From contig CAVTCR010000018.1 in the NCBI GenBank assembly GCA_963733195.1, positions 1 through 64,000 on the forward strand: DNA of 64,000 nt, written 5' to 3'. Positions 19,612 through 56,852 of this stretch are shown one piece after another. Position 1 is the first letter of the stretch. Each line of letters opens with the position of its first letter. Both the position numbers and the translations under genes were made by a program. This DNA is from an uncultured delta proteobacterium (GTDB lineage: Bacteria; Desulfobacterota; Binatia; Bin18). The notes under the pieces are model-generated. The model searched no databases, was not told the DNA's origin, and saw nothing but the letters and a program-made list of their open reading frames with translations.

Positions 19612-20761
19612 TTAGCAGCCGAGCTGCCGAGCAATCACCATCCGTTGCACTTCACTTGTGCCTTCACCGATGGTGAGAATTTTCGAATCAAGATAGAAGC
19701 GCGACACCGGAAACTCGCGGGTATAGCCATATCCCCCATGAATCTGCACAGCCTCTTCCGCCGCTTTCACCGCGATTTCTGATGCTGCCAGTTTCGCCAT
19801 CGCTGCTTCTGTAGCAAACGGACGTCCTTGGTCCCGCAGCCATGCGGCACGGTAGATCATCAGTTTCGCCATCTCTGCTTGTGTCGCCATGTCTGCAAGC
19901 TTGAACTGGATGGCCTGATGCGACGCCAATGGCTTGCCAAAGGTTTTGCGCTCCATCGCGTACTTGAGCGACATCTCCAGGCAACCTTGCGCCAATGACA
20001 ATCCAAGCGTAGCAACGGAGATACGACCACACTCCAGCGTCTTGAGGAACGCGCGAAAGCCCGAGCCTTCTTGTCCGAGCAAATTCTCACGAGGGACGCG
20101 CACGTTGTCGAAAATTTGTTCGCGCGTATCAACTCCATGCCAACCAATTTTCTTGTACCGCCTCCCAACAGTATAACCCGGTGTCCCGTGAGGAATGATC
20201 AGCGAACAATACTGTCGTTTGCCGCTCGTCATCTGTACCGTTGGTAGTAAGAGCGACGAGACCATAGCTGATCGGCGTGCCAGCATTTGAGATGAAACAT
20301 TTTGTCCCATTCACCACCCACTCATCGCCCTCTAAACGGGAAGTCGTCTGAATATTAGAGGCATCCGATCCAGCTTGCGGTTCAGTTAAACCAAATGCCC
20401 CCAGTCGCTCTCCGCGCGCGAGCGGTGCTAACCATTTGAGTTTCTGCTCTTCAGTGCCGAAGTGTAGGAACGGCAAGGACCCGATCGTTAAGTGAGCCTG
20501 CAAAGTCGTGGCAATCGACTGATCCACTTTGCCGATTTCTTCCAATGCGGCAACCATAGCCATTGTTCCAGCATTCGTGCCGCCGTATTCTTCCGGAATG
20601 AGTAACCCCATCAGGTTGAGGTCAGCCATCTTGCGATAGACCTCAACCGGAAAGTGTTCAGCATCGAACCACTCGTCAGCATACGGAGCGATCTCTTTAC
20701 GAGCAAAATCGCGACAGAGATCTTTGAGCATCTGTTGTTCAGGAGTCAGTTCAAAATCCAT
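19612..20761 (-). CDS. acyl-CoA dehydrogenase (frameshift near 20210)
   Basis: [39 protein letters not shown]. Confidence 0.9.
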
Positions 20762-20857
20762 GACGGTGGCATATAGCACATCCCGCATAGCTTATGGTAG
20801 GAGCCGTTGCAGTGGAGGGTGAGCACTGCCCGCCCTATTTGACAGAAGGAGGAGCCA

Positions 20858-27186: not shown

Positions 27187-28200
27187 TTACAACTTCGGAA
27201 TCACCTTCTCACCAAATCGGCGAATGGCATCGAGTGTCTTCTGATGCGAAGGGCCGCCCGGCTGACGGAAACGGACAATCAGATAGTCCGGACGGATGGC
27301 TTCCTTCCACATTTGCAGTTGCTGCAGGCAATCTTCCGGTGAGCCAACAATCAAACGCTCCTTGGCACATTTGCTAAAGGATAGGTCTTCTGGACGTTTC
27401 ACGTCCTTCAAATGCTCATCCGGTACATAGGCTCCATACTGGAAGTAGAAACGGTGCGTGTACATCGTAGGATCACTTTCCGCTTCCGCTTCTTTCATGC
27501 TGTTGGCGACTACGGCATCACGCATCAAGCAAATATACGGCTTCCGTCCTGCCTTCTGACACGCAGCGCGGTAGCGATTCGCATAGTCTTTGATCACAGG
27601 AAGAGACTGGACAGGATCAGCAATCCAACCGTCAGCCATCTTGGCAGCACGACGCAAGCCAGGAGGTGTCCACGAGGCCATCCAGATCGGCGGGCCAGGT
27701 TTCTGGAACGGTGTTGGAGTAATCAACGTGTCCTTGTAATGGAAATGCTTCCCTTGGTAGGAAAAGCGCTTGCCGGTCCACGATTCACGCATGATTTCCA
27801 GCGCCTCTTCGGTGCGTGTGGCGCGCTCAGCAACGGGAATCTCAAACGCATCGAAGTCATGCGGTTGGTAGCCCACACCAACACTCAACACCAAGCGACC
27901 TTTGGTCGCTAAGTCGATCACAGCACAGTCTTCAGCGACATGCACGGGATGATGCAATGGCAGCAGCAGCACACAGGTGCCAACCTTAATGCGTTGTGTT
28001 TTCATGCCGACGAGCCCGGCAATTAACAGCGGGTTAGGAAGATAGCCGTCTTCTTGTTGGTGATGTTCGGTAATAAAGCAGCCATCCCACCCGTTCGCTT
28101 CAACCGCTTGCGCTTCGGCGACGATCTCATCAAGCACTCGCGTCATATTCGCGCCCGAGGGCGGATCTTGTGTACAAGGCAAGTAGCCAACGGGTAGCAT
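27187..28200 (-). CDS. LLM class flavin-dependent oxidoreductase
   Basis: TEHH..DGYLPNP, LPLHHPVHVAED, GRLVLSVGVGY, IVGSPEDC. Confidence 0.88.
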   Translation of the reverse strand: MLPVGYLPCTQDPPSGANMTRVLDEIVAEAQAVEANGWDGCFITEHHQQEDGYLPNPLLIAGLVGMKTQRIKVGTCVLLLPLHHPVHVAEDCAVIDLATKGRLVLSVGVGYQPHDFDAFEIPVAERATRTEEALEIMRESWTGKRFSYQGKHFHYKDTLITPTPFQKPGPPIWMASWTPPGLRRAAKMADGWIADPVQSLPVIKDYANRYRAACQKAGRKPYICLMRDAVVANSMKEAEAESDPTMYTHRFYFQYGAYVPDEHLKDVKRPEDLSFSKCAKERLIVGSPEDCLQQLQMWKEAIRPDYLIVRFRQPGGPSHQKTLDAIRRFGEKVIPKL

Positions 28201-28399
28201 AAGAAAATCTCCTTTCATAGAAACGCAAAGCCTGACCCTTAAAGCAAATACCGAAAAATTTGTCCATTGCTGACTCGCACGATCATGGGAGCGTGAAAAA
28301 ATCACTCATCGCTGAATTTCTCGCTGCTTCATGTGTTCGCTCCTTATTCCCACGAGTGCGTTGACAAGCTGTCCTCTCTGCGACAGGCTGAGGGACGAC

Positions 28400-29446
28400 A
28401 TGCTTTCGCTTGCTAAAATTCTCATCGTCGATGACGAGCCGTTCAACGTGGACTATCTGCAGCAAGAGCTGGAAGACCTCGGTTACACAACAATCAGTGC
28501 CACCAACGGACAGGAGGCCCTGGAGAAGGTAGCTGCCGAAGCCCCAGACCTGATCCTTCTTGATGTAATGATGCCGGTCATGGACGGGTTCACCGCCTGC
28601 CGTCTCCTAAAAGACAATGAAGCGACCCAGCTGATCCCGATTATCATTATGACAGCCCTACGGGAGACGGAAGATCGTATCAAAGGCATCAAGGCCGGGG
28701 CCGATGATTTTCTCAGTAAGCCAGTTGATCGACGCGAACTGATCGCGCGCATCCAGACTGCGATCAAAATGAAACAAGTTGTGGATCGAAGATTGAGCGG
28801 ACAGAAAACCGAGGACAGCGGACAGGCGGGAAGAGAAATACCAAACGAAGTCTTCCATTGCGAGGGCGAGTACTGGACCATCGCCTATCAGGGGACAGTC
28901 TGCCGCGTTAAGGATACTCTCGGGCTGCGTTACCTCGCCTCCCTACTCGGTTCCCCACATAGACAGATCCATGTCCTTGAGCTGGTAGCTTTGGGGGAAG
29001 GCCCAGCAGAACATGTCACTGCCGAGGGAAGAAACCCAACTATATTAGCGGAAGCAGGCCTGTACGTGTCCAGGCTTGGTGATGCCGGAGAGATTCTGGA
29101 TGCTCAAGCCAAAGCGGCGTACAAGCGGCGGTTGAAAGAATTACGGGAAGAACGGGAAGAAGCGCAGACAGACAACGACTTAGAGCACGTCACTAGGGTC
29201 CAGCAAGAAATCGACTTTCTAACTGAGGAGATTGTGAGCGGAATTGGGCTCGGCGGACGTGACCGCCGAGCCGCATCTACCGCGGAACGGGCGCGAGTGA
29301 ACGTGACGCGAGCCATTAAAGCCGCCCTGCAAAGGCTTTCTACCCATCACCCCGTGCTGAGCCTTCATCTGACCCGTACCATCAATACAGGGACGTTCTG
29401 TTCCTACACCCCTGATATTGACCTCCCCAGCCCTTGGAAGTTGTGA
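28400..29446 (+). CDS. response regulator: REC + C-terminal putative DNA-binding output domain
   Basis: ILIVDD, LLDVMMP, KP; C-terminus EGEYWTIAY..GLRYL..DAGEILD..AERARVNVTRAI resembles the tails of AAA-TPR regulators. Confidence 0.8.
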   Translation: MLSLAKILIVDDEPFNVDYLQQELEDLGYTTISATNGQEALEKVAAEAPDLILLDVMMPVMDGFTACRLLKDNEATQLIPIIIMTALRETEDRIKGIKAGADDFLSKPVDRRELIARIQTAIKMKQVVDRRLSGQKTEDSGQAGREIPNEVFHCEGEYWTIAYQGTVCRVKDTLGLRYLASLLGSPHRQIHVLELVALGEGPAEHVTAEGRNPTILAEAGLYVSRLGDAGEILDAQAKAAYKRRLKELREEREEAQTDNDLEHVTRVQQEIDFLTEEIVSGIGLGGRDRRAASTAERARVNVTRAIKAALQRLSTHHPVLSLHLTRTINTGTFCSYTPDIDLPSPWKL

Positions 29447-29453
29447 TTGTTAA

Positions 29454-29512
29454 GAAGGCTAAAGGCTCTAGGTTGTAGGGTCTTCCTTTTAGCCTTATGC
29501 CTACAGCCTTCT
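29454..29512. repeat. heptamer tandem-repeat palindrome (AGGCT/AGCCT core)
   Basis: GAAGGCT AAAGGCT CTAGGTT GTAGGGT ... TTAGCCT TATGCCT ACAGCCT. Confidence 0.75.
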
Positions 29513-29747
29513 GTGTTGGTTGTTCAGTCAGAATGAACAATTCGTTCCGTCTGTTGTTACGCCTATGTGGTGAGTAGTTACAAGGAGTAGCCAGACTGTG
29601 GAACGCGTCTAGTAACCTTTGGTGCTAGTTCTGAAGAACAACGTAAGATCAACGTGTTGCAAAGCCTGCATGCCTCACAGTAGAAGGGCACACACGAGGA
29701 AAATCACATACTTAGGAAATTAAACTAGCACCACTGGTTATAAGGTT

Positions 29748-32700
29748 ATGGAACGCGTCTATCACTTCATTGTGCACAGACCAAGGCTTGTTCTTTTGCT
29801 TATTGCCCTGCTCACTGGCTTCTTCGCCTTTCATGCGCAGCACATCCGGTTGGATGGTTCAGTCGAACGGCTGCTGCCGGGAAATGACCCGGACAATCCA
29901 TACTATCAATACTACGCGGAAGTCCGCGAGCTGTTCGGGAACGACGAAGTCGGCGTTATCGCCGTCGTCGCCGACAATATCTACGTCGCCGAGGTCTTGA
30001 ACAAGCTCCAACGTCTCACCAAAGAAATCGAAAAAGTCGATGGCGTCGCGAGTGTCCTGAGTCTCGCCAATGCGGTAGACCCGGTAGCCGATGTGACCGA
30101 GCCACCGTGGATCATGCCACAAATCCCAACCACTCCTGCGGCAGCCACGGCCCTACAAGAGAAGTTGGCTGACCGTCCGATTTACCTCAAAATCCTGGTG
30201 GCTCCTGACGGACGGGCGGCGGCCATCAATATCTTTTTTGCTGAGATGAGCAACGACGAGTTCATGCACCGCGGCATTGATGACACGATCCAGAAAATTG
30301 TCGAGCGGGAAAATACTACCGCCGTTCAAGAGCAACGGCCGGAACGATGGTACTACACCGGCTTGCCCCACTTTAAGGTCTACTCGACCAAGGTTATGCA
30401 ACGTGACTTATCACGGTTGGTGCCGCTGATGCTGCTGTTTATCGTGCTGGTGTTGTTCTTTTGTTTCCGCTCGCTCCGCGGGGTTTTGCTTCCGACCCTG
30501 ACAGTGATTGTCAGTCTGATCTGGACCCTGGGCATTATGGTGCTCAGTGGCGGAGCTCTCAGCCTAGGCAGTATGGCCCTGCCACCGCTGGTGTTGGTAG
30601 TCGGTGTCGCCTATTCGCTCCACGTAGTCGCCGAATATTACGAGCTCGCGCGCCCTAACCGTTCGCCCAAGGAAGTAGTGCTGGAGACTGTACGGAGGAT
30701 CAACACGCCAGCCCTGATGGCCGCCCTCACAGCCGTGCTAGGGTTTTTCGTGCAAGCGCTGAATCCGATTGTCAGTATTCGCGAAATGGGCATCTACTCA
30801 TCGCTCGGTATCACTTTGGCATTCGTATTCTCGCTGACTTTAGTGCCGGCGCTCCTCGCGATGCTGCGCCTGCCAAACCGACGCGTAGACACCTTCGCCC
30901 CGGGGCTCAGCGCTAGGCTGCGACGGTTAACGAGCACGGTCATGCAGCGCCGGAGCCTCATCATCACCGCGTGTGCTATTGTGGCACTCCTCGCGTTCAG
31001 CCAGATTCCCTCGATCCGAGTCGATTCCGATTTTCAATCATTCTTCCGTCCGTCAGACTCCATTCGTCAGGCCACGGACGTGGTCAGTCATACCCTTGCG
31101 GGCAGCATGGCGTTTAATGTAGTAATCGACGGAACAACCCGCGACATAATGAAGCAATGGGAGACCCTACGACGCATACGTACCCTGCAAGAGGCAATCG
31201 ACGCGTTGCCGGGAGTCGACAAGACGGTGTCGTTCGTCGATTACTGCTTACTCATCGACCGTGGCGTTCAAGAAGGGGGCGGTGGCCTCGAAGTCTCCCC
31301 CGAAGGAGAGTTGGTCGAGCCTACAGTTCAAGCATCTGGAAAGAAGACAACCTTTCTCGAAAATCCCGAGCAACTAAAAGCGGTTATGCAATTGTTTGCA
31401 GGGCGACCGAAAAGCCTCGCCTTGGTGGTGAACCCCGAGTTCTCGCGCACCAACATCCTCGTACGCACTTCGCTGTCGGGCTCGAATGACATTGCTGCGA
31501 CGGTGGACAAAATCAACACCCTGGCCGCCGAGATTCTTCCCCCCGAACTCAAAGCGCACCCGACCGGGAGCATTATTCTGCTGACAAAAACCATTGGGGA
31601 CATTGTCAGCATTCAGGCGCAAAGCTTGACGCTCACCGCGGTAGTCATCTTCGTCCTGATGGCGGCCATGTTTCTTTCTGTTCGCGTAGGGGCCATCGCT
31701 ATGATCCCCTACCTCTTCACACTCCTGGCTTTCTTCGGCCTCATAGGAGCTTCAGGAGTCGTTTTCAATCTTGGCACTAACACCATCGCATTGGTCATCC
31801 TGGGGATCACCGTAGATAGTACTATCCACCTCATGACGCGGCTGAGCTTTGAACTGCGAACCGGCGCCGATCAGGAACCAGCCCTGCTACAGACACTTGC
31901 TACGGTGGGCAAATCCAACCTCTACGTTTCCTCAAGCTTCTTCCTGGGCTTTCTTGTCTACGGCTTTTCCACTTTCGTTCCTATGCAACAGTTTGGTCTT
32001 CTCTCTGCGACTGCCATGATTGTAACGCTGGCAGCGAATGTCGTGTTGTTGCCGGCGCTGCTCGCCTCCCGTCGCATCCTCACTGTGTGGGACCTCTTGT
32101 ATACGGTGACGCAGCTCACGCAGAAACTCGAACAGCGCGTAGCGGAACGCACCCAAGAGCTGCAAAAGGTGAATCGGCAACTGGAGGTGGCCTCCCGCCA
32201 TAAATCGGAGTTCTTGGCCCGCATGTCCCACGAACTGCGCACGCCCATGAACGCCATCATCGGCTTCACCCGCCTGGTCATGCGACGCTCTCAGAACATT
32301 CTGCCTAAGCATGAGCACGAGAACCTGGGGAAGGTCTTGATCAGTGCCGAGCACCTCCTGACGTTGATCAACGATATTCTCGACCTCTCCAAAGTCGAGG
32401 CGGGGCGGATGGAGGTCCATGCGGTTCGCTTCGAGTTGGAGCCGTTGATCAATCTGTGTCTCCACACGGTCGAGCCACTCATCAAGAACGAACGTCTCCG
32501 ACTGGTGAAAAAGCTGGAGGGCGGCATGCCCGAGCTTTTTACAGATCAGGACAAGCTGAAGCAGATCCTCATGAACCTCTTGAGCAATGCCCTCAAGTTC
32601 ACCGAAGCGGGGACGATTACGGTCACCGCCCAGCGTCAAGATAGACACGTCGTAATTTCCGTCGCGGACACCGGCATTGGCATCCCCGCGGATCAGTTAG

Positions 32701-32996
32701 CGCTGGTGTTTGAAGAATTTCACCAGGTAGACAACAGCGCCACTCGACAGTATAGCGGCACGGGCCTGGGGCTCTCGATCAGCCGCCACTTCGCGCAACT
32801 GTTGGGCGGAGACATCATGATACAAAGCACGATCGGGGTGGGCTCAACCTTCACCGTTAGTGTTCCGCTGCACTACGAAGCTGCTCAACTGGCTGCGCAC
32901 GTTGCAGCGGTCTCCGTCCGTGACGTCGGGACTCCTGTGTTTGAAACCGGTTCGGTGGCGCTAGCCATAGACGATCCTACAAAGGTAAAGTCATGA
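29748..32996 (+). CDS. MMPL/RND-domain sensor histidine kinase (MMPL-S-helix-HisKA-HATPase fusion)
   Basis: one 1082-aa ORF: ~780-aa two-repeat MMPL region, then LEQRVAERTQEL, SHELRTP (H box), NLLSNALKFT (N), DTGIGI (G1), GTGLGL (G2). Confidence 0.9.
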   Translation: MERVYHFIVHRPRLVLLLIALLTGFFAFHAQHIRLDGSVERLLPGNDPDNPYYQYYAEVRELFGNDEVGVIAVVADNIYVAEVLNKLQRLTKEIEKVDGVASVLSLANAVDPVADVTEPPWIMPQIPTTPAAATALQEKLADRPIYLKILVAPDGRAAAINIFFAEMSNDEFMHRGIDDTIQKIVERENTTAVQEQRPERWYYTGLPHFKVYSTKVMQRDLSRLVPLMLLFIVLVLFFCFRSLRGVLLPTLTVIVSLIWTLGIMVLSGGALSLGSMALPPLVLVVGVAYSLHVVAEYYELARPNRSPKEVVLETVRRINTPALMAALTAVLGFFVQALNPIVSIREMGIYSSLGITLAFVFSLTLVPALLAMLRLPNRRVDTFAPGLSARLRRLTSTVMQRRSLIITACAIVALLAFSQIPSIRVDSDFQSFFRPSDSIRQATDVVSHTLAGSMAFNVVIDGTTRDIMKQWETLRRIRTLQEAIDALPGVDKTVSFVDYCLLIDRGVQEGGGGLEVSPEGELVEPTVQASGKKTTFLENPEQLKAVMQLFAGRPKSLALVVNPEFSRTNILVRTSLSGSNDIAATVDKINTLAAEILPPELKAHPTGSIILLTKTIGDIVSIQAQSLTLTAVVIFVLMAAMFLSVRVGAIAMIPYLFTLLAFFGLIGASGVVFNLGTNTIALVILGITVDSTIHLMTRLSFELRTGADQEPALLQTLATVGKSNLYVSSSFFLGFLVYGFSTFVPMQQFGLLSATAMIVTLAANVVLLPALLASRRILTVWDLLYTVTQLTQKLEQRVAERTQELQKVNRQLEVASRHKSEFLARMSHELRTPMNAIIGFTRLVMRRSQNILPKHEHENLGKVLISAEHLLTLINDILDLSKVEAGRMEVHAVRFELEPLINLCLHTVEPLIKNERLRLVKKLEGGMPELFTDQDKLKQILMNLLSNALKFTEAGTITVTAQRQDRHVVISVADTGIGIPADQLALVFEEFHQVDNSATRQYSGTGLGLSISRHFAQLLGGDIMIQSTIGVGSTFTVSVPLHYEAAQLAAHVAAVSVRDVGTPVFETGSVALAIDDPTKVKS

Positions 32997-33358
32997 AGAA
33001 AATTCTGGTTGTAGAAGATGTGGAATTTAATCGCGATCTCCTCGTCCAACTCTTAGAGGACGACTACGAAGTCATTACCGCGCCTGATGGAGCGGCCGGG
33101 ATCATAGAAGCCGAGCGCGAACACCCCGACCTCATTCTCATGGATCTCTCGCTGCCGGTGGTCGATGGGTGGGAAGCGACTCGCCGAATCAAGGCCAACG
33201 CAGCACTGCACAACATTCCACTCATTGCGCTGACGGCCCACGCGATGAGTGGCGATGTAGAAAAGGCCCGAGCGTGTGGCTGTGACGATTATCTGAGCAA
33301 GCCGCTCGATGAAGACCTATTGTTTGAGAAGATAAAGCAGTTTTTAGGAGAAAGGTAG
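32993..33358 (+). CDS. single-domain response regulator (DivK/CheY-like)
   Basis: ILVVED, LMDLSLP, ALTAHAM, SKP; ATGA overlap with the kinase. Confidence 0.92.
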   Translation: MKKILVVEDVEFNRDLLVQLLEDDYEVITAPDGAAGIIEAEREHPDLILMDLSLPVVDGWEATRRIKANAALHNIPLIALTAHAMSGDVEKARACGCDDYLSKPLDEDLLFEKIKQFLGER

Positions 33359-33380
33359 AGTATATTCAGGGACCGCCGGC

Positions 33381-34468
33381 ATGGAGGGATACGTAATGCC
33401 CGAACGCCCCAAAATCCTCATCGTCGATGATGAGCCGTTCAACGTAGACTACCTGGAACAAGAACTAGCAGACCTTGGCTATGAGACAACCAGCGCCACC
33501 AACGGACAGGAGGCCCTAGAGAAGGTAGCTGCCGAAGCCCCAGACCTGATTCTCCTCGATGTAATGATGCCAATCATGGACGGGTTCACAGTTTGTCGCA
33601 CCCTGAAGGAGAGTGATGAGACACGGCTCATCCCCGTCGTGATCATGACTGCCCTGGATGGGATTGAGGATCGGATCAAAGGGATCGAGGCCGGGGCCGA
33701 CGATTTTCTCACCAAACCCGTTAATGATCGAGAGTTACTCGCTCGCGTGCGGACCACCTTGAAACTGAAACACACGGTAGACCATAAGCTGAACGAACTC
33801 CGGCGGATCAAAGATCACTTTGCGAAGTTTGTGCCCGAGGCCGTGAAGCGGCTTAGCCACTGTCGACCCCGAGGCACCAGCGCTGGCGAGGAAGCATGAG
33901 CAAGATGTGACGGTTCTCTTTCTTGGACATCAGTGGCTACACCCGTTTGAGCGAACGGCTACCGCCAGAGGTACTCAATACGCTGGTTGAACGTTATTTT
34001 TCTGCTTTTCTCGACCGTATCCATCAGGCCGACGGTGATATCAATGAAACTGCTGGTGATGGATTCATGGCCATTTTTCACGATGTTGATCGCTGCGTAC
34101 ACGCGGTCAAAGCTGTAGACACTGCGCTCGCCTTACTCGCGGCCACGGCAAGCGCTCAACCAAGAGAACCGTGAACATCCGCTCTCTATTCACATGGGTC
34201 TCAACTCTGGGACCGCGTCTGGTTGGCGCGACTCGCTTTCGAAGGGATGCATGGCGCGCGCTGGACTTTCACAGCCAGTGGCCCAGTAACGAATCTTGCG
34301 GCGAGGTTGGCAGGCGTTGCCAAGGCCGAACACATCCTTATTGGCCCTGAGATAGTGCGCCGTCTTGGGGAAAGCTATCGCCTAGAAAAAGTAGGGCGCG
34401 AACGCTTGAAAAACATAACCGAAGCCATAGATATTTACCGCGTTATGGGTCGATCGGTTTTGCTGTGA
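33381..34468 (+). CDS. REC-class III adenylate/guanylate cyclase (several apparent indels)
   Basis: REC then FAKFVP, VTVLFLDISGYT, NETAGDG, IHMGLNSG, GPVTNLAARL across ORFs 33381/33923/34223. Confidence 0.85.
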
Positions 34469-34520
34469 GGGTTGCTTTTCTCGACACAAGACCAAGGGAA
34501 AGAGTTCACTGCTCCTAATC

Positions 34521-35385
34521 TTACGGTCTCCTTTCTCCGGGTCCTGAAAACGGCGGCTTGACTTCTGTGACTGTAAGAATTTTCCAGGAACCGTTTTCTT
34601 TCTGAAGCGTGTACGAGGCACGTAGTTTCTCTAAAACAGATTGGTCTTTCTGGTAACGGGTTACATCAGCGACGATCAGCGCGGTTTCCTTCGTCAACGG
34701 CCAGACCTGAAGTTGATCCGTCACCGATCGGCCCCAGCCGCGCTTGTGTAGGTCGGTCATGACGCGTTGATAGGCGCGCTCGTGATCAGCGACCGTCAGT
34801 GTCACGATCATTCCCTGTTCGCCGAGCAAAAAGGCATGCGGGTGAGCCATACGAGCGAATAAATGCAGCGCGGTCCTCTTCATTGAAGCCATTGATGTAG
34901 TCGCGGTAAAACCTTTCGACTTCACTAATGATGGTCTTGGCATCAGCAACATTCTCCTGCGAACCCTCCGGTCCAACAAAAGGCGGCTTTACTTCAGTCA
35001 GCGTCAAAACTTTCCAGGCTCCACTATCTTTGCGCACAGTGTAACAATAGCGCCCGCTTTCCAGGATTGAATTGTCTTTTTTGTAGCGTGAGATGTCAGC
35101 CACAAGAAAGGCCATAATCTCGGCAATTGGCCACACCTGGAGTCGATTCACACCAGTATGATCCCAACCGCGTTCTTGAATCGAAGACATCACTTCTTGA
35201 TAGAATCGCTGTTGATCGGACTCTTTCGCGTTGATCGTCAGTCCATGTTCGCCACTGAGTATCCCGTTGGGGTAGCAGAACGAACGCAGGTACATGTCGG
35301 TATCCTCACGGTTGAAACCATCAATGAAGGTACGATAAAATGACTCCACTTCATTGGTGAGGGTAGTAGCATCCACCATAATCAT
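34521..35385 (-). CDS. tandem two-domain NTF2/SnoaL-like protein (frameshift near 34845)
   Basis: two homologous halves: EVExFYRxxIxGFNxED...RGW...LQVWP...VAD..RY.KD.S.LE...WK.LT.TEVKPPFxGP. Confidence 0.7.
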
Positions 35386-35432
35386 ACTCCTTTAAGCGAT
35401 CCACAAAGTAGTAAAGTTCAACCTCTGACAAT

Positions 35433-35461
35433 AAAAAAAGGAGCCGACTTCCGACGGCCCC
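35433..35461 (-). terminator. intrinsic terminator
   Basis: minus strand GGGGCCG-TCGGAAGT-CGGCTCC followed by T7. Confidence 0.7.
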
Positions 35462-35551
35462 TGTATATCATGACAGGGTTCATTTGCAGTAGGGCACCCC
35501 TCCTGAAACTGTAACCATACCCCTGAGACATTCCTTAAATTGAAATCTTGC

Positions 35552-35929
35552 TTAGCGGTACGCCACAATTTCCAGCAGGTTCCCGTCCGGGTCAAGAAAA
35601 TACAAACAGTCGTGATCTCCCCAGTCAATCGGTCCGTAGGTCGGTATGCTGCGAGCCTTGAATACCTCCTGCGCCGCTTGCCAATCCGTACGGCTCACTG
35701 TGAAGGCGTGGTGTCCTTTGCCCAGGGGATTCTCGATCCGGTCCGTTACTCGTGGTGACAGATCTCGGCGCTCGAATAGTGCGAGGTTGAGATTACCGCA
35801 CTGCAATAACACTTGGTGACGACCGAAGCGTTGTACGACGGTCAGACCAAGGACTTCAGTATAGAAGCGTTCAGCACGGTCAAGATCGAAAACATCAACA
35901 CCAAAATGGTCGAGACAGAGTAGTTGCAT
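35552..35929 (-). CDS. VOC/glyoxalase family protein
   Basis: LDHFG..V.DL..AERFY.EVLG, HHAF, YFLDPDGNLLEI. Confidence 0.9.
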   Translation of the reverse strand: MQLLCLDHFGVDVFDLDRAERFYTEVLGLTVVQRFGRHQVLLQCGNLNLALFERRDLSPRVTDRIENPLGKGHHAFTVSRTDWQAAQEVFKARSIPTYGPIDWGDHDCLYFLDPDGNLLEIVAYR

Positions 35930-36057
35930 GGGTGGATCGTACACTAGCTACTGTTACACGAGAAGTGTAGAGCAGAGAATCAAGACGAGAAGACCCCAAC
36001 GGGGTTGCTCCTACCATCATCAAGTGACAGAGTGCCAGGCGTCATGGAGGAAACCTC

Positions 36058-39218: not shown

Positions 39219-39662
39219 CTACCACTGACCAAGGTCGATGACGAGCGGTGTCACCGTCGGATCGTGATAGGGACCGTACACGCGGAACGGTAGCGTGGTC
39301 AGCATTTCTGCGCCACGGGCAAGTAATTGTCCCGCGAGCGGAACCTTCGCCACACTACTCGTGATCCCATGGAGTGGCATGAACGAGGTCTTCAAGTCGA
39401 GCGTGTGCTGGCCCAGATCGATTTCGCCTGTAGCCTCAATACGGACGGAGTTACTCGCAAGAGACAAATTCGGAGTTACGGCCACTCCGTTCCCAAAAAC
39501 AAAATCCCCAGCAAGCGACGAAAACGCCAGGCCGTCGTTTGGTAGACGTGGCAGTTGAAAACTCAGTAGCTCTTGTAGACTCACGGCAGACCATAATCGC
39601 ACCAACATCGGTATTTGTTGAGCCATTCCATCAGCAATTGCAGCTGAACAGAGCCATGCCAA
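39219..39662 (-). pseudogene. AsmA-like C-terminal fragment
   Basis: FSSLAGDF..GNGV..T, G.IDL..LD, KVPLAGQLL, F.V.G...DP.V; lacks the N-terminal part and a clear start. Confidence 0.6.
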
Positions 39663-39791
39663 GCGACTTGCCGCTGATCAAGCTGCGATGACCATGTCGG
39701 AGCAACGGCCCGAAGCTCAATCGTCTCAAGTTCTCCTTCGCTGCCACCAGTGCGACGGAAAATCGCAACCAACACCACATGCACGTTCACC

Positions 39792-40694
39792 TCAGAATTT
39801 CGCTTCGTCTGGCCGAGCAGCAGGATCGGCAAGGAACTCTCGCAATACGCGGACATACGTTTCACCACCAGCCTCATGCAGGTTGTTGTGCCCGGCACCC
39901 TCGATCGCGTAGAATCGCTTCGGTTGCGGTGCCAAGGCATACAACGCTTGTCCTTGATGAAACGGAACCGTCCAGTCTTCTGTGCCGTGGATAATTAACA
40001 GCGGAGAGGGGAACCGTTCGACTAAGCGAGCAGAATTCAGATCCTGATCCACAAGAAAAGCAAGCGGTGGTAACCGGAGCTCCCCCATGGCGCGTAAAGA
40101 GAGAAAGGGCGCAAGGAGAACAGCATGGCTCGGTGGGGTTTCCAGTGCAAGCGTTACCACCACTGCCGCCCCTAGTGACTCGCCAAGATACACCACCGGT
40201 CGGCCTGCAATCCAGCCGCGCTGCTGCGCACAGGCAATCGCTGCACGACCGTCATCTAGAATACCGGGAATAGACGGTTTCCCTCGGCTCTTACCAAAAC
40301 CTTGATAGTCAAACACAAAGTGACTGCCCCCCACGCGATTGTGCAGGAGGCGAAGATGGGCAAGACGATGACCAATGTTTCCTGCGTTGCCATGGAACCA
40401 GATAAACAACGGGTCCGCCGTACCTGTAGGCGTCTGACGGCTTGGCACATACCATCCATGGAGCAAGCGACCGTCGGCTCCGCCAAACCACACTTCCTCA
40501 TACGGCAATCCGTATGCCGCAGGTGAAGTATCGACCTTTGTATTTGGATGAAAGACAAAGGTATTCTTGAGCCAGTCGATCGGAGAGGTCAGTAACGAAC
40601 CGAGCAGCGCACTGACCGAGGCCCAACCGATTTTCCAATTTACCGTGTTTGCGTCACTCATCATTGGCTTGATAATGTCACGAGCTTCATTCAT
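39792..40694 (-). CDS. alpha/beta hydrolase (ABHD13/17-like)
   Basis: FHGNAGN, DYQGFGKS, GESLG, HGTED, GAGHN. Confidence 0.9.
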   Translation of the reverse strand: MNEARDIIKPMMSDANTVNWKIGWASVSALLGSLLTSPIDWLKNTFVFHPNTKVDTSPAAYGLPYEEVWFGGADGRLLHGWYVPSRQTPTGTADPLFIWFHGNAGNIGHRLAHLRLLHNRVGGSHFVFDYQGFGKSRGKPSIPGILDDGRAAIACAQQRGWIAGRPVVYLGESLGAAVVVTLALETPPSHAVLLAPFLSLRAMGELRLPPLAFLVDQDLNSARLVERFPSPLLIIHGTEDWTVPFHQGQALYALAPQPKRFYAIEGAGHNNLHEAGGETYVRVLREFLADPAARPDEAKF

Positions 40695-40762
40695 TCTGCA
40701 GACTCACGTCGTCCTAAGAATTATAGCGACGTCAGAAAAATTTCGCAGCAAGGAGGGGTGCC

Positions 40763-45964: not shown

Positions 45965-48900
45965 TTAAAAATCATTGACGATGGACGGAGCAATCAACTG
46001 TCTTCTGTCGAAGACCTTCCGCCTTGGAGCCTTCTCATCCAGCTCTTTAATTAACGCTTTTGCCTCTCGTAAGTCGGCAGTAGCAAAGCCTTCACGGAAC
46101 CAATTGTAGGAGCTTTCTACCAATCGCTGAGCCTCTTGCTCTCTCCCTTGTTTTTTCCGCAACCGCGCCAGGCTGATAGCTGCCCGTAATTCCAGCGACT
46201 TCGCTTCTTGGCGCAGGCGACATCAAGGGCTCGTTGCAAACAACCTTCTGACTGTGACTTGTTAACCCGCGAGATAGATTGCAATTGCCTTGCTTTACCT
46301 TTAAGTTTGGTGCGTTTCTCTTCTTGATTTTTACTTTTCTGTTGAAGCAACAGTTCTCCCGTAAGTCGATGCAACTCGGCGTTCCACCAGCGGTCGCCGG
46401 TCCGAGCGGCAAGTGAAAATGCTTCACTCAAGACTTTAATTCCTGTCTCAGTGTCCCCGTCTCTTCCGCACGACTCGGCATGTAAAGAAAGATAATAAGA
46501 CAACAAAATCTCCGCGCCCACCGCACGCCAGGAAGCAATTCCCTGACTGGATCGATGCAATTCCGTCCCTGAGCGTTCCCCTGAGTGGCTATTGCCCATC
46601 CTCGCAAAATCTCGCCCATACTTTTCCAAAGCGGAAAACTATGCTCAAGCGAAACGGTAATAGCCTGCCTCAGCTCGCAGTTGAGTCAGTTGCGGCTCTC
46701 CTCGAAGCTGATGGAGGCCCGCCCGCAAAACGAATGCATACGCTGAGCTATACGGATGAGCGCGTTTTTCAGCTAAGGTAAGAGCTTCCTCGCTCGTGGC
46801 TAACGCTTGATCTGGATAACCAAGAAACCAGAGAACATACGAGGCCCGAGAGAGACACGCTACACCAGGGTCCTGGCCATACACGGGAGCATGCGCATGG
46901 TGCTTCTGTGGATCATACAGGCTTCGACCTAGGTTCAGATGCTGCAAGCGCTGGTGAACTCACCCATGCTCGACAACCTCCCACCTAACGCTTGGTGAGC
47001 CTCTAGTAGCAGCGCTTGATCATTCTCCTCCTGTGCCACTTGCAGGAGCTGTTCTCCTAAATCACGGGCGGTCGCTAATTCCGCCCGAACGTAATAGAAC
47101 GCGGCAAGGCCCCGGAGCACAGGAACAAGTTGCGGAGTTTGTCCGATCTGTTGACATAATTCGCGCGCACGGTCGTAGGCCTGCTTGGCTTCTGGGTCGG
47201 CATAGCCTTTGGTCGTCATCAATGCCACACCCAGGCCGATCTGGCATCTGAGTTCAAGATGCTTCCGCTCTAGTGTGTCAGTGAAAGTTTGCAGTAGCCC
47301 CAGTGCCCTGGTCAAATAGCGAATGCATTCAGGATAGGCAAATCGCTGTGTCGCCTGCTCTGCGGCTTGCTGCAAATACGCTACAGCACGGTGGAAGTCT
47401 CGTCCATGTTCGAAGTGCAGTGCTAGCTCCGCAGCAATTTCTCCGGTGCGATCACAATAGCCCTGTTCAAGTCGCTCACCAATCCGTTGATGAAACTGTA
47501 TCCGTTTTCCTGGTGTCAGCCTGCTGTACGACACCTCGTGATACAAGGTATGAATGAATTCATAACGTGCAGTGACTGTTCCATCCGGCCACGCGCGGAG
47601 TCTCTGTCTCTTGAATGAACTGACTCTGCCGCATGAGATCAGCACAACGCTCCTCAATCTCGAGCGGATCTCTGCCAGTGGCCGCTGCAATCACTGTAGA
47701 AGAAAACTCACGGCCTTCGACACTTGCCGCTTCAAGAATCTGCCGGTCATCAACACTGAGGCGATCGAGTTTCTCCTCAATGGCTTGATGCAAGCTTTCC
47801 GGCATGTGGAGATCTTCGACGTTCAACGACAACTTCCAACGTCCGCCTTTTTCGACCATCTGTTCGCGTAACATGTTCACCATATTCACCATGAACAGGG
47901 CATTTCCCTCGGTGCGACGATGGACCAGATCGGTTAACTCTGCCGAGAACACTTTTTCGAGAAGGTGCTTCCCTACATAAGTAGCAACCTCTTCCTTGTT
48001 CAACAGTGCCAGTGACAACTCTTCACACTGGTGGCGTACCTGCATTTCGCGCTTAATCTTTTTCAGCGGATGCCCAGTTGTCAGATCCGCAGGACGATAG
48101 GTACCAATCACCATCAACCGTATACGCTCTTGTCGTTGAGCCAAGTAAGCCAGCAGCTCCAGGGTCGAATAATCGCTCCAATGCAGATCTTCAAGTACCA
48201 AGATAAAGACAGTTTCATTGGTCAGGGCTTCGAGCGCATCCGCCATCTCCCGGAGCATACGTTGCTGGTTCGCACCCTGGATGCGCTGCTGCAAGCTTGC
48301 AACCTCCGCACTACTCAACAATGCAGGCATTTGGATCATCCAGGTGGGAGCATAGCGGCTCAGAAGTGCAGCTATCGGAGCCCCTCCTGGGTCACGGCAC
48401 AAGCGACCAAGTGCTTCTAAGATAGGCAAATAGGATTCACCCTCTCCATACTGCTCTAAGCATTGGCCGCGTCCGATCCGCACGCGCCTATCTGTCCGAA
48501 CACGTGCTAAGAACATCTCGACTAGCGTCGTTTTGCCGATCCCAGGTTCCCCAGTGACAAACACGATCTGCCGCATGTTACGCCGCGCCTTGCCAAACCA
48601 CTCGTCCAGTTGCTCAAGCTCATCCCTACGCCCAACGATATGCTCAAAGCCTTCACCAAGCTCCTTCTTGGTTGACAAAGCCTTCCCCTCCACCATTGGC
48701 CCGATATAGCGATACCCCTTTCGTCCTATAGTTTCGACGTATTGCGGGACCTTCGCATCATCCCCCAAGGCTTGGCGGATCTCACGGATGCAGACTCTGA
48801 GCACAATATCAGTGACATACGCCCCTGCCCAAACGTACTTCAAGACTTGTGTTTTTGTGAGAGTATCGGGAGCGTGTTCGACCAACATTTGTAATACCTC

Positions 48901-49005
48901 TACCGACGTTCGTCGTAAGGGTAATTGCTGATCTTCACGCCAGATATGTTTCTTTTCCGTGTCCAAGCGGAAAGGGCCAAAAGTGAGCTGAGAAACTCGT
49001 TCCAT
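45965..49005 (-). CDS. wHTH-AAA ATPase-TPR (STAND-like) transcriptional regulator, several indels
   Basis: FGPFRLD..YVET..RKGYR (wHTH), GEPGIGKT, LEDLHWSD, EGNALF, AELHRL.GE, WFREGF.TADL.EA. Confidence 0.85.
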
Positions 49006-49024
49006 GTTCAATACTATAGCAAAC

Positions 49025-49072
49025 TGAACCAATCTGAACAGAAAGGTGAACAGTTCAGGGCTAAAGATGAAC
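49025..49072. promoter_or_regulatory. TGAAC direct repeats, putative wHTH operator
   Basis: TGAAC at 49025, 49035, 49047, 49068 between divergent genes. Confidence 0.45.
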
Positions 49073-49189
49073 CAGTTACTTCTTTAAGGTGTTCTTGTGC
49101 AAAGAGCCTTCTAAGCTTTCGATTGGGAGAATGTAATGTTGTTGATTTCACGTCAATAACGCAGAAGACTTCCTCATAGGATAGTACAT

Positions 49190-53804: not shown

Positions 53805-53819
53805 GAGGTCGTGCGAGCT

Positions 53820-56800
53820 ATGAGTATCACTACTCGCATCGGTCTCATCACGAAGTTCAACCTCTTAGCGATTACACTGATTTTGTTAACCGCAATGGGG
53901 ATCGCCTTCGTTCAGATCCATCGTGAAAAAACCGCGAGCTACGAAACCCTCCTCCACCGGGGACGGCTCACTGTTGCCATGATCGCACAGAATAGTGAGT
54001 ATGCCATCTATACAGAGAATCAAGCCTCGCTGCGGAGAATTGTCGACAGCGTCAGAGTTGATTCCGATATCGCGTATGTCGCGGTTCTCAATAAAGAAAA
54101 AAATATCCTGCTTCTGGAGATCGCTGACTCGACTATCCAAATCCCACCATTTCCAGAGGAAACTCCAGGTCTCGACGCTACAACCTTGGCACGAGATATC
54201 ATCAGCCCCGGGAATCGTAAGTCATATATCGACCTCTCCACTCCCGTCATCACAACGGCACAAACAGACCCGATAGAACTGTTTCCGGAATCGCTTCCAA
54301 CTTCCGCCACTCCTCTTGTCATCGGATATGTCCAATTAGGATTGAGCCAAGACAGCCTTCGCAAGAACATTCAGGACTTTCTCATTTCTACCATCATCCT
54401 TACCCTCGTCATCGCCCTGATCGGTGTAATTGCAACCATTCTGCTTACGCAGCGTATCGCCTCGCCTATCCGAGCCTTAGTCCGCGCCACCCACGAAATT
54501 GCCGAGGGAAACTTAGATCAAGAAGTCGAGACAAAAAAGAATGACGAAATCAACGATCTCGCCACTGCCTTCAATACGATGCTGGCACGCTTACGCACGT
54601 CACGCGTAGAGGTCGAAAGTTATCAGCAGATGTTGGAGGCAAAAGTTGCGCACCGGACACAAGAATTGCAGGAGGCTACAGACAAAGCGTTTGCTTTAGC
54701 GCGACAGGCAGAGGAAGCAAGTCAGGCCAAATCCCAGTTTCTCGCCAACATGAGCCATGAAATCCGCACCCCGATGAATGGCGTGTTAGGCATGACCGAA
54801 TTACTGCTCGACAGCGGATTGAATGATAACCAGCACCGTTTTGCAGAGACCGTCCATCGATCTGGCGAAGCATTACTAGAGATCATTAATGATATTCTTG
54901 ATTTCTCTAAAATTGAAGCAGGGAAACTAACACTGGAGTCTTTCACATTCGATCTCCGCCAGATTGTTGAAGAAGTGATGGAGCTACTCGCGGAACGTGC
55001 CCATCGAAAAGGTTTGGAACTTGCCTACCTGATTCACAACGAGGTGCCAACCGCCCTCATCGGCGATCCCGGTCGTGTTCGTCAAATCCTGATAAATCTG
55101 ATCGGGAATGCTATTAAGTTTACCGAGCACGGAGAGGTCATCGTCGCAGTGCGGAAAATAGCTGTCACCTCTCAACCTGCGGATTTTTGCGGCTTACGAT
55201 TCTCTGTCCGTGATACTGGTATCGGCCTTTCTCCAGAAGCACAGGCTCGACTCTTTCAGGCATTCTCCCAGGCCGATAGCTCAACGACACGTAAGTATGG
55301 CGGCACAGGTTTGGGATTGGCGATTGCCAAACAACTTGTGCACCTGATGAACGGAGAGATTGGTGTAGATAGTGCTCCTGGACAAGGGTCAACTTTCTGG
55401 TTTACAGCGATCTTCGCCATACAGCCGGAGTCTATTACTATCCCACGTCCCGCCGTCAACTTTTCTGGTTTGCATGTCCTCATAGTTGATGATAACGCTA
55501 CCTGCCGCAACATCCTTCAGCATCAGCTCCGGACTTGGAATGCTTCCTGCGAGAGCACCGAAAGTGGCCCGCAAGCCCTCGACATTCTTCGCTCTGCTAT
55601 TACCCAAGGAACGGCATATGACCTCGTCATCCTTGACCTGCATATGCCTCTTATCACCGGTGAAGAGTTGGCACTGGCAATCAAAGAAGACCCGAAGCTT
55701 TCTGCATTGCCACTGCTCCTCCTTATCTCAGTCGGTCAGCGCAGTGATATCGAGGCTGGGCGCAGAGCTGGTGTGTCGGCATATCTGTCTAAACCACTTC
55801 GTCAAGCAGACCTTATTACCGCCCTCCAGACGGTAAAGAATGGAGAGGACAGTCGTCCATCAGTATCTGCAGAGGTAACGACTCAAGCCTCGCAGATGCC
55901 TCCCAGCAGATCTACGGTAAGGCCACGGTTCAATGCGCGGGTGCTTCTAACGGAAGATAATCTCGTCAACCAAGGAGTTGCACACACGATGCTCGAGGCA
56001 TTAGGGTGTCAGGTTGATATCGCTAACCATGGCCGGGAAGCTGTAGAAGCAGTGGAGCGTACGACGTACGATCTAGTCTTTATGGACTGTCATATGCCGG
56101 AGATGGACGGTTTTGAAGCGACTCGGCTGATCCGAGAACGCGAAGCTGCGGCAGCAAAACTACAAACTGGGAAAGATGAGCGCGGCACGATGAATAGGGA
56201 ACATCACAGCTCTAATTCAGCATTCAGTATTCAGTATTCAGCATTTTCCCGTGTTCCTATCGTTGCCCTTACGGCTAATGCCATGGAGAAAGATCGTCAA
56301 CACTGCCTTGATGCCGGAATGGACGATTACCTGAGCAAGCCGTTTTCACAAGAACAGTTAGCTACCGTCCTAGCTCGTCATCTCCCAACACATTCGCCCA
56401 CCGCAGAGTCACAAGTGGAAACGACCCAGGACGCCCCTCCCCCAGTGCAAGCCGAGCCATCGGCAAACGTTCAGGTTCTTGCTCATAATCACACAGAAAG
56501 TGAGCAATCTTCGCCAATCGATGCAGCCGCCTTGAATCAGATTCGTGCGCTCCAACGTCCGAATGCACCCAGTGTCATACATAAAATTATCAACAGCTAC
56601 CTTAAAGATGTCCCACAACTTCTCGAAGTGGCCCGGCAGGCAATCGCACAGAATGATTCCTCAACCTTGTACCGCACGGCGCACAACCTCAAATCTACCA
56701 GTGCCACATTAGGCGCACGGAACTTGGCTGCACTGTGTAAGGAACTAGAAGCCATAGGGCGGGCGCAGACCACAGCCAAAGCTGATATGTTGTTGATGGC

Positions 56801-56852
56801 AATCGAGCAGGAATACGCGCAGGTTCAAAATGCGCTCACAACAGAGTTATAA
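53820..56852 (+). CDS. hybrid histidine kinase (TM-HAMP-HisKA-HATPase-REC-REC-HPt)
   Basis: [28 protein letters not shown], two REC domains, AHNLKS HPt. Confidence 0.93.
56175..56245 (+). repeat. heptamer repeat element in frame within REC domain
   Basis: ATTCAGC ATTCAGT ATTCAGT ATTCAGC preceded by GATGAGC..GATGAAT; encodes ...[24 protein letters not shown]... Confidence 0.7.

Follow-up and report, generated by a model that had tools for sequence, protein, structure and literature searches.

Sensor kinases that use a whole transporter as their input are few. The closest described systems are CrbS and CbrA, which are reportedly SLC5-STAC histidine kinases, that is, fusions of a transporter to a kinase. 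CbrA both transports and signals and is called a "rare transceptor" in a 2026 preprint (PMC13022988). The locus described here encodes a different kind of fusion, in which the product, P0001, joins an MMPL/RND body with sterol-sensing-domain (SSD) matches to a histidine kinase. The gene lies in a 64,000-nucleotide (nt) stretch, hereafter the window, that comprises positions 1 to 64,000 of the forward strand of contig CAVTCR010000018.1 (assembly GCA_963733195.1) of an uncultured delta proteobacterium (Bacteria; Desulfobacterota; Binatia; Bin18). We give about an even chance to P0001 being a transporter-receptor ("transceptor") sensor kinase, a reading that the CbrA precedent supports (PMC13022988). 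A first-pass annotation of the window had noted that no such protein was characterized, and our search agreed: no published MMPL/RND-kinase fusion was found in the literature searched by titles and the beginnings of abstracts, supplements excluded, nor was a published family of MMPL proteins with cyclic-nucleotide-binding (CNB) domains, a Binatia MMPL protein or a bacterial sterol-sensing-domain kinase. We found no described whole-transporter sensor kinase that uses an RND/MMPL lipid-exporter body.

P0001 is encoded by a single unbroken open reading frame (ORF) of 1082 amino acids (aa) at 29748..32996 (+), as the first-pass annotation had stated. The order of its parts is a body with 12 transmembrane helices (TM) of the MMPL/SSD type, a long S-helix-like helix, HisKA and HATPase_c, and all Pfam domains scored above their cut-offs. 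MMPL (PF03176) reached 125.5 bits (cut-off 20.5) in two stretches, one in each half; Sterol-sensing (PF12349) reached 39.3 bits (cut-off 22.3) over residues 250-372, corresponding to TM2-6; and the Patched SSD model (PF02460) reached 31.6 bits. HisKA scored 63.2 bits over residues 819-886 and HATPase_c, the catalytic domain, 105 bits over residues 932-1041 (32541..32870, +). The sequences SHELRTP (827), LLSNALKFT (944), DTGIGI (974), FEEFHQ (988) and GTGLGLSIS (1004), which we take to be the H, N, G1, F and G2 boxes, are all kept. No STAC, PAS or SLC5 symporter domain was detected with Pfam at E<=0.01. The best NCBIfam transporter model was HAE3 (TIGR00921) with 203.4 bits, below its cut-off of 351.9, and HpnN (TIGR03480) gave 133.7 bits, below 751.85; therefore P0001 reaches neither curated family. 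The GC fraction is 0.52-0.57 over the locus and composition is flat.

The AlphaFold2 model of P0001 (monomer, 43-row alignment, mean predicted local distance difference test [pLDDT] score 80.7) places TM1 at residues 12-30, followed by periplasmic domain 1; TM2-6 at 206-372, with TM4 at 278-300; TM7 at 385-422, followed by periplasmic domain 2; and TM8 at 608-642. TM9 (645-669), TM10 (675-704), TM11 (709-740) and TM12 (744-772) together correspond to 31680..32063 (+). Foldseek searches with this model matched MmpL5, MmpL4 and MmpL3 best (target TM-score 0.70-0.78, E 1e-20 to 3e-23), followed by HpnN (0.63), by NCR1, NPC1 and NPC1L1, and by Patched. After TM12 comes the linker RILTVWDLLY (32073..32102, +), recognized from alignments and a consensus and common to the CNB-type relatives. 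The fusion point lies directly after it: the junction LTVWDLLY/TVTQL, which the first-pass annotation had placed near 32100, falls at residues 780-785, with the linker ending at nt 32102. The model continues with a helix at 780-847 that contains AERTQEL at 799, in which ERT is presumably the signature of the S-helix (signalling helix), and that includes helix 1 of the dimerization and histidine phosphotransfer (DHp) domain with the phospho-acceptor His828 (codon 32229..32231). The second DHp helix (854-884) precedes the ATPase domain. Together the two helices, delimited by the model and by the HisKA match, occupy 32085..32399 (+).

The motifs GVAYSLH (286-292) and GITVDSTIH (686-694), singled out in the first-pass annotation as the TM4 and TM10 equivalents, do fall in those helices of the model. 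GVAYSLH aligns with GTDYGIF of MmpL4, with Ala288 in place of the TM4 Asp. By alignment, Tyr289 (codon 30612..30614, +) is present in 30 of 30 family rows and His292 in 27 of 30, while Asp690 (codon 31815..31817, +) is present in 28 of 31, the exceptions being P0015 (Ala), P0023 (Asn) and P0127 (Glu). Thr692 and His694 are each present in 30 of 31 rows. The CNB types carry the same TM4 and TM10 motifs, which are the norm of the whole family. The first-pass annotation had taken the missing adjacent Asp-Tyr pairs as the mark of a receptor without a proton relay, an argument that finds no support here, since the motifs are the family norm and the Asp-Tyr dyads of MmpL3 bridge TM4 and TM10 and are not adjacent on one helix (PMC7458404). 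The two dyads of the MmpL3 type are not present in P0001, which has Ala288-Tyr289 in TM4 and Asp690-Ser691 in TM10; judged from the alignment, Tyr289 and Asp690 could form at most one cross-helix dyad. A loss of proton coupling does not follow from these residues, because the motifs are usual for the family and one Tyr-Asp dyad is still allowed.

The fusion is rare among the relatives of P0001. Five of the 120 best relatives of the whole query were full-length MMPL-kinases (P0007, P0009, P0012, P0014 and P0015), with lengths of 1059-1097 aa and 58-62% identity to P0001. When the junction region (residues 690-900) served as the query, the same five proteins alone covered the whole region, and the next matches were HAMP-GAF kinases in which the kinase part alone aligned. 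A further five, shorter proteins spanned the junction with 73-100% coverage (P0279, P0124, P0392, P0393 and P0394), and junction-spanning sequences formed about ten clusters at 90% protein identity. Among the best 150 matches in a library of 1.84 billion representatives, the P0009 cluster was the sole full-length one, and among 241 million metagenome records a single locus, L091, matched from TM11-12 into the kinase. A scan of 401 genomes of the class, in which eight candidates were scored per genome, gave a junction-spanning match in three: the genome of the window (G000), G227 and G267. The ESM Atlas, queried with P0007, returned a 186-member cluster with MMPL in 100% and HATPase_c in 99% of members, which may be the same clade counted with fragments. 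In their records, the nearest relatives bear the label Candidatus Binatia, and one sequence is annotated only as "MMPL family transporter."

Some candidate fusions were rejected. L025 consists of two separate genes, a GAF-PAS-kinase and an MMPL-CNB protein; L085 and L086 are HAMP-GAF kinases; and L038 is a fusion of a Ser/Thr kinase to HisKA. The last type is an observation in its own right: the same kinase module, 73-91% identical in the S-helix/DHp region, also occurs in relatives joined to a Ser/Thr protein kinase domain (578 aa; L038 7191-8927, P0395 and P0399). A 421-aa REC protein is encoded upstream in L038, and P0395 is on a contig equal in length (52056) to that of the MMPL-kinase P0012.

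A cNMP_binding domain (PF00027) follows the MMPL body in 115 of the 120 best relatives of P0001. These CNB-type proteins are about 920 aa long and are up to 83% identical to P0001 over residues 1-786. The nearest relatives of the P0001 body are thus members of a very large, undescribed MMPL-CNB family and not kinases, and the locus points to a far larger unstudied family of MMPL exporters with a C-terminal CNB domain. Labels on their records are Binatia, Methylomirabilota and several former Deltaproteobacteria groups. CNB-type copies were present in all three kinase-type genomes, and in six of six genomes checked, kinase-type or not. The sequence GEMALLGDHVRTADV, which we take to be the CNB phosphate-binding cassette, is intact in the CNB domain of the own-genome paralog on contig C70. 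Genes beside CNB-type paralogs encode a RecN-like SMC_N protein, an acyl-CoA dehydrogenase, an E1 dehydrogenase and a sigma-54 activator, and they give no hint of the substrate. The RecN-like SMC_N gene directly follows the MMPL-CNB gene in L171 (5816-7555, -) and L015 (10774-12498, +), and the pairing is conserved between the own genome and a complete chromosome of Binatia. One own-genome CNB-type paralog (G000:C58:27202-29514) has just 818 aa and a truncated C-terminus, another (G000:C10:63457-65707) is in two pieces split near residue 561-565, and G227:C21:79883-82201, whose MMPL body is 55% identical to that of P0001, has a 1048-aa frame compared with the 920-940 aa usual for CNB types. 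The window itself also holds a distant MMPL gene at 912-3161 (+), with an open frame of 799 aa and 23% identity to the P0001 body, and a separate 1015-aa histidine kinase at 53805-56849 (+).

The body of P0001 is a mosaic. A tract from about codon 31 to codon 640 (29838..31667, +; approximate limits from the identity profile and the tree) spans the end of TM1, periplasmic domain 1, TM2-6 with the sterol-sensing domain, TM7, periplasmic domain 2 and TM8. At the nt level, P0001 and the CNB-type paralog on contig C70 are 80-98% identical over most of codons ~30-620, with 71-77% at codons 361-440, a peak of 98% at codons 521-560 and about 60% past codon 640. The kinase-type gene of L091 shows the opposite course, with 45-69% identity in the tract and 73-90% beyond codon 680. 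In a hand count of the first 30 residues, 23 of 30 agree with L091 and 15 of 30 with C70. At the protein level, the tract is ~90% identical to the CNB types P0004-P0006; P0001 is 84-100% identical to P0004, its closest CNB-type relative, over residues ~26-625, compared with 32-72% to the kinase types; identity to P0005 and P0006 goes down to 62-70% at residues 376-425. Over residues 751-1025, P0001 is 76-96% identical to the kinase types; kinase-type proteins in general share 76-98% identity in the kinase part (~751-1025) and 32-72% in their bodies.

Trees of the two parts disagree. Rows were hand-picked from ~390 proteins: every kinase type, CNB types sampled across the range of identity, and four distant proteins. 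For residues 1-630 (31 rows), a quick maximum-likelihood search placed P0001 beside P0004 deep within the CNB types, with enclosing nodes at a Shimodaira-Hasegawa-like approximate likelihood ratio test (SH-aLRT) value of 99; P0007, P0009, P0012 and P0014 formed a separate clade (98) and P0015 joined the CNB-type P0127 (100). Residues 655-785 (32 rows) gave a single clade that contained all seven kinase-type rows, P0001 among them (SH-aLRT 99). TM9-12 and the kinase thus share one origin, and the rest of the body was replaced at least twice. P0015 is a mosaic too: it is kinase-like over its first 50 residues and again from residue 700, and its residues 151-600 are closest to the CNB-type P0127, most clearly at 201-350. 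A second sequence with the same 3' breakpoint as P0001 is P0279, the representative of its 90% cluster, which is encoded on another contig (6.5 kb). The two proteins are close but not the same: identity to P0001 is 96% at residues 545-640, 99% at 646-785 and 97% at 786-1000, and the same three ranges of P0279 give 86, 55 and 11% against the CNB-type P0005. Because this second, non-identical sequence shares the breakpoint, the mosaic is best read as gene conversion and not as a one-off chimera; the independent support covers the 3' breakpoint only.

On the 5' side, the 302-nt intergenic leader (29447..29747, +, read directly) contains at 29598-29612 (GTG GAA CGC GTC TAG), about 150 nt upstream of the original, an 11-nt copy of GGAACGCGTCT, which follows the P0001 start codon (29748-29760). 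The copy falls inside a 47-nt stretch (29567-29613) that is absent from a relative's contig, and it might be a trace left by recombination at the 5' end of the tract. Rfam gave no match at E<=1 over 28000-35500, and scans for promoters and terminators were at the chance level (4 found, 3.5 expected; 9 found, 6.9 expected). Since TM1-8 and the periplasmic domains derive from a CNB-type paralog, the sensor body is not specialized for the kinase; interchangeable with CNB-type bodies, it is therefore an ordinary member of the transporter family. The mosaic suggests that the same transporter body serves either signalling module, and it places the coupling element in TM9-12 and the linker.

P0001 is part of a four-gene cassette, consisting of a putative REC-winged-helix regulator, the MMPL-kinase, a single REC protein and a REC-cyclase, that recurs in two other genomes. 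The 5.1-kb contig L011 carries the MMPL-kinase, the REC gene with its ATGA overlap and an intact REC-cyclase. L091 (12.6 kb), which belongs to the 90% protein cluster of L011, adds an upstream REC-X gene 77% identical to P0002, and G227 holds all four genes, including the P0002 ortholog. This comparison of neighbourhoods confirmed that the fusion is not a singleton. The cassette begins with the response regulator P0002 (28331..29446, +), which has REC at residues 30-142 (110.9 bits) and an output domain of ~200 aa, in line with the REC-output regulator of the first-pass annotation. The true start of P0002 is likely Met24 at nt 28400, because orthologs begin there; this is also the position at which the first-pass annotation had begun the locus. 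REC was the only Pfam domain found in P0002, with no Trans_reg_C match by sequence. The modelled output domain (mean pLDDT 69) resembles OmpR/PhoB-type winged-helix DNA-binding domains with Z 6.8-7.7, although values of Z <8 can reflect a common arrangement; 84-98 of 88-107 residues aligned with at least seven OmpR/PhoB domains, and a helical hairpin is inserted at 253-309. The model is thus suggestive, not conclusive, of a winged-helix DNA-binding type. The ESM Atlas returned unnamed clusters only for the output domain, and Foldseek searches with the whole regulator gave weak matches (TM-score 0.11-0.21).

Output domains of the P0002 type were present in 96 of 201 genomes of the class, a tally that includes one unpublished genome, in hundreds of copies and up to 21 per genome; the genome of the window had 16 matches, including the window copy at 28823-29443. 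They are mostly N-terminal in open frames of ~1100-1300 aa, one example of which carries AAA_16 and another TPR. The domain is a greatly expanded module without a Pfam entry, in host proteins that are usually STAND-like.

P0003 (32993..33358, +) is a single-domain receiver of 121 aa with orthologs at the same position in L011, L091 and G227. Its start overlaps the P0001 stop by ATGA, and the two genes are presumably translationally coupled. The overlap had been noted in the first-pass annotation; the likeness to DivK claimed there was not borne out, as P0003 scored 55.2 bits on the NCBIfam DVU0259_DivK model (cut-off 160) and is a generic stand-alone REC. The REC and class III nucleotide cyclase domains expected downstream were found at 33381..34468 (+) by Pfam and by comparison with the L011 ortholog. 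The gene is not the single ORF that had been assumed, and is distributed over three ORFs (33381..33899, 33923..34174 and 34223..34468) with five segments in frames 1, 2, 3, 1 and 3. Guanylate_cyc (PF00211) is scored in the window by the first piece alone (27.5 bits, cut-off 21.9), and by the intact 410-aa ortholog of L011 with 77.5 bits. The best solved relative of the cyclase is 2w01, presumably the Cya2 guanylate cyclase; both have Glu where CyaB (3r5g) has Lys, at a position that we take to be the base selector. Because this specificity residue is Glu, the sequence suggests that the cyclase uses GTP rather than ATP and that cyclic GMP (cGMP) is the likelier product. The 75% identity (96/128) between the REC domains of P0002 and the cyclase suggests a single kinase that serves two outputs; P0003 is 36% identical to the cyclase REC.

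The quality of the assembly bears on how the locus is read. The source genome, a metagenome bin, comprises 87 contigs and has 4.5% contamination. Elsewhere in it, at least seven matches to kinases or MMPL proteins lie in fragments spread over different open frames, and in the window adjacent stop-to-stop frames of one strand overlap in 22 cases, nine of which are at least 90 nt long (for example 19615-20791, 35395-35947, 39222-40703 and 46938-49083). The assembly therefore seems rich in frameshifts. One of these overlaps, at 34521-35385 (-), is between two ORFs of 152 and 199 aa in different frames that both match NTF2-like DUF6841; they look like one gene with tandem domains that a single frameshift has interrupted, some 400 nt past the broken cyclase. 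The first-pass annotation had named reads across the junction as a check. Positions 32020-32170, and with them the MMPL/kinase junction, are bridged by a contig of 151 nt from a different soil sample (4 differences); no public run contains the locus, the best run had 0.10 of the sampled words, and no RNA run was listed with it. Over the locus, contigs of four soil runs proved to be short pieces from relatives (90-95% alike), and none bridged the breakpoint at ~31.68 kb.

The transceptor mechanism we propose for P0001 begins with a proton-coupled MMPL-type exporter body for lipids or amphiphiles, which would report its substrate load or conformational cycle to the fused HisKA kinase. The route of this signal would be TM9-12, the conserved linker after TM12 and the S-helix-like coiled coil; if TM9-12 were the transducer, its grouping in one clade with the kinase would be expected. 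The kinase, obligately dimeric, would then phosphorylate up to three receivers encoded around it: the putative winged-helix transcription regulator P0002, P0003 as a likely sink or shuttle, and the REC-cyclase, whose Glu suggests cGMP. The first-pass annotation had proposed a lipid-sensing phosphorelay ending in a cyclic nucleotide. The fusion, the kinase motifs and the recurring wiring of that proposal stood; an intact cyclase did not, the gene being broken here, and the Glu points to GTP. Overall, its observation was partly confirmed and its interpretation partly supported.

Several findings weigh against the transceptor reading. The helix at 780-847 spans 68 residues but is modelled with a pLDDT of just 54-67, and a non-helical break of seven residues (773-779) separates it from TM12. 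No lipid or hopanoid genes were found near P0001 among the adjoining genes, the only ones viewed, which encode luciferase-like monooxygenases, MmgE/PrpD and NTF2-like proteins. The window cyclase has five single-base insertions relative to the L011 ortholog (near 33850, 33923, 34153, 34218 and 34237), the G227 ortholog has one frameshift, and in the other two genomes of the genus, of which one is 100% complete, scoring all candidates revealed no MMPL-kinase and only CNB-type copies. Position 691 is Asp in none of seven kinase types compared with 15 of 24 CNB-type rows, and the kinase-type P0015 has Ala at 690.

The last two points, by which proton coupling may be altered in the kinase types, fit a body that no longer transports and acts as a Patched-like, lipid-binding input to the kinase, as do the SSD and Patched matches in Pfam and the Ala in place of the MmpL TM4 Asp. 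We consider such a pure receptor, the reading of the first-pass annotation, unlikely, though a serious alternative, as TM4 Ala-Tyr with TM10 Asp is usual across the family, CNB types included; one cross-helix Tyr-Asp dyad remains compatible with the dyads described for MmpL3 (PMC7458404); and TM1-8 with both periplasmic domains were copied from a CNB-type paralog. The flow could also be reversed, the kinase gating the transporter through its ATP/ADP state or receiver feedback, as CNB presumably gates the paralogs. The CNB domain of 115 of the 120 best relatives indeed follows the common linker RI(I/L)T(V/L)WDL, and regulatory domains fused to transporters are a known theme in a review, where CNB domains are fused to MFS transporters and not to RND proteins (PMC10710835). 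Reversed flow nevertheless seems improbable to us: the full HisKA/HATPase_c core, the coupled REC and the two further REC proteins of the conserved cassette look like an output pathway. A signalling helix, moreover, normally carries input towards the DHp domain.

Two further alternatives concern the integrity of the locus. The broken cyclases of the window and G227 and the two congeners in which the gene was not found would be explained if the cassette were decaying in this genome and no longer signalling. Five insertions within 400 nt are dense, whether as consensus errors or as recent decay. However, in an assembly in which split genes seem frequent, the 3.2-kb fusion ORF, P0002 and P0003 are unbroken, and all kinase motifs are retained. 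The extra bases at 33857 and at 34153 are missing from relatives' contigs of two soil runs, so that two of the five insertions are absent there, which fits error or recent change alike. Decay is in our judgment a poor prospect. We think it highly improbable that an assembler joined two paralogs and so produced the mosaic or the fusion. A fragmented metagenome bin with some contamination, a best public run with 10% of the sampled words and paralogs up to 98% nt-identical over 120 nt would allow for such a chimera, but P0279 has the same 3' breakpoint on another contig without being identical, synteny with kinase-type loci extends over both flanks, the gene opens with ~30 codons of the kinase type, and there are five independent full-length kinase-type clusters and a comparable mosaic in P0015.

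An extension of the transceptor reading, speculative and rather doubtful, is that the rare MMPL-kinase is a "sentinel" that controls many MMPL-CNB "workers" through a cyclic nucleotide. The kinase would sense lipid load and, through its receivers, drive the REC-guanylate-cyclase, and the nucleotide would gate the two to five MMPL-CNB exporters per cell by binding to their CNB domains. Recurrent gene conversion, as in P0001/P0279 and P0015, would match TM1-8 and the periplasmic domains to those of the workers, with TM9-12 and the kinase kept private. Co-occurrence with CNB types does not discriminate for this loop, because they were present in every one of the genomes checked. If true, the loop would amount to a self-tuning control of lipid export and a role for cGMP in bacteria.

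P0001 shares with CbrA (PMC13022988) and, reportedly, CrbS a whole secondary transporter and HisKA/HATPase_c in one polypeptide that signals to a response regulator. It would work like that group but is not a member of it, since its transporter is of the RND/MMPL type and not SLC5, and it has neither STAC nor PAS. The presumed ligand is a lipid or amphiphile in P0001 compared with an amino acid or acetate in CbrA and CrbS, and the three receivers and cyclase of the P0001 cassette also set it apart from them. The MMPL-CNB paralogs have the same body, TM4 and TM10 motifs and post-TM12 linker and occur in the same genomes, but they carry a cyclic-nucleotide sensor in place of the kinase, form a separate TM9-12 clade and are far commoner. 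MmpL3, MmpL4, MmpL5 and HpnN resemble P0001 in fold (TM-score 0.63-0.78), in 12 TM, two periplasmic domains and polar residues at the TM4 and TM10 relay positions. They differ in being 12-17% identical to it, in having two dyads where P0001 has one possible dyad, and in lacking a signalling domain; hopanoid and mycolate genes are, for their part, absent from the genes that adjoin P0001. Patched, NPC1 and SCAP are similar in their SSD matches, in fold and in the idea of an RND-type body in signalling, whereas they are eukaryotic and have no fused kinase, and the likeness is at the superfamily level only. The locus offers a genetically compact bacterial counterpart for how sterol-sensing-domain proteins convert lipid handling into a signal.

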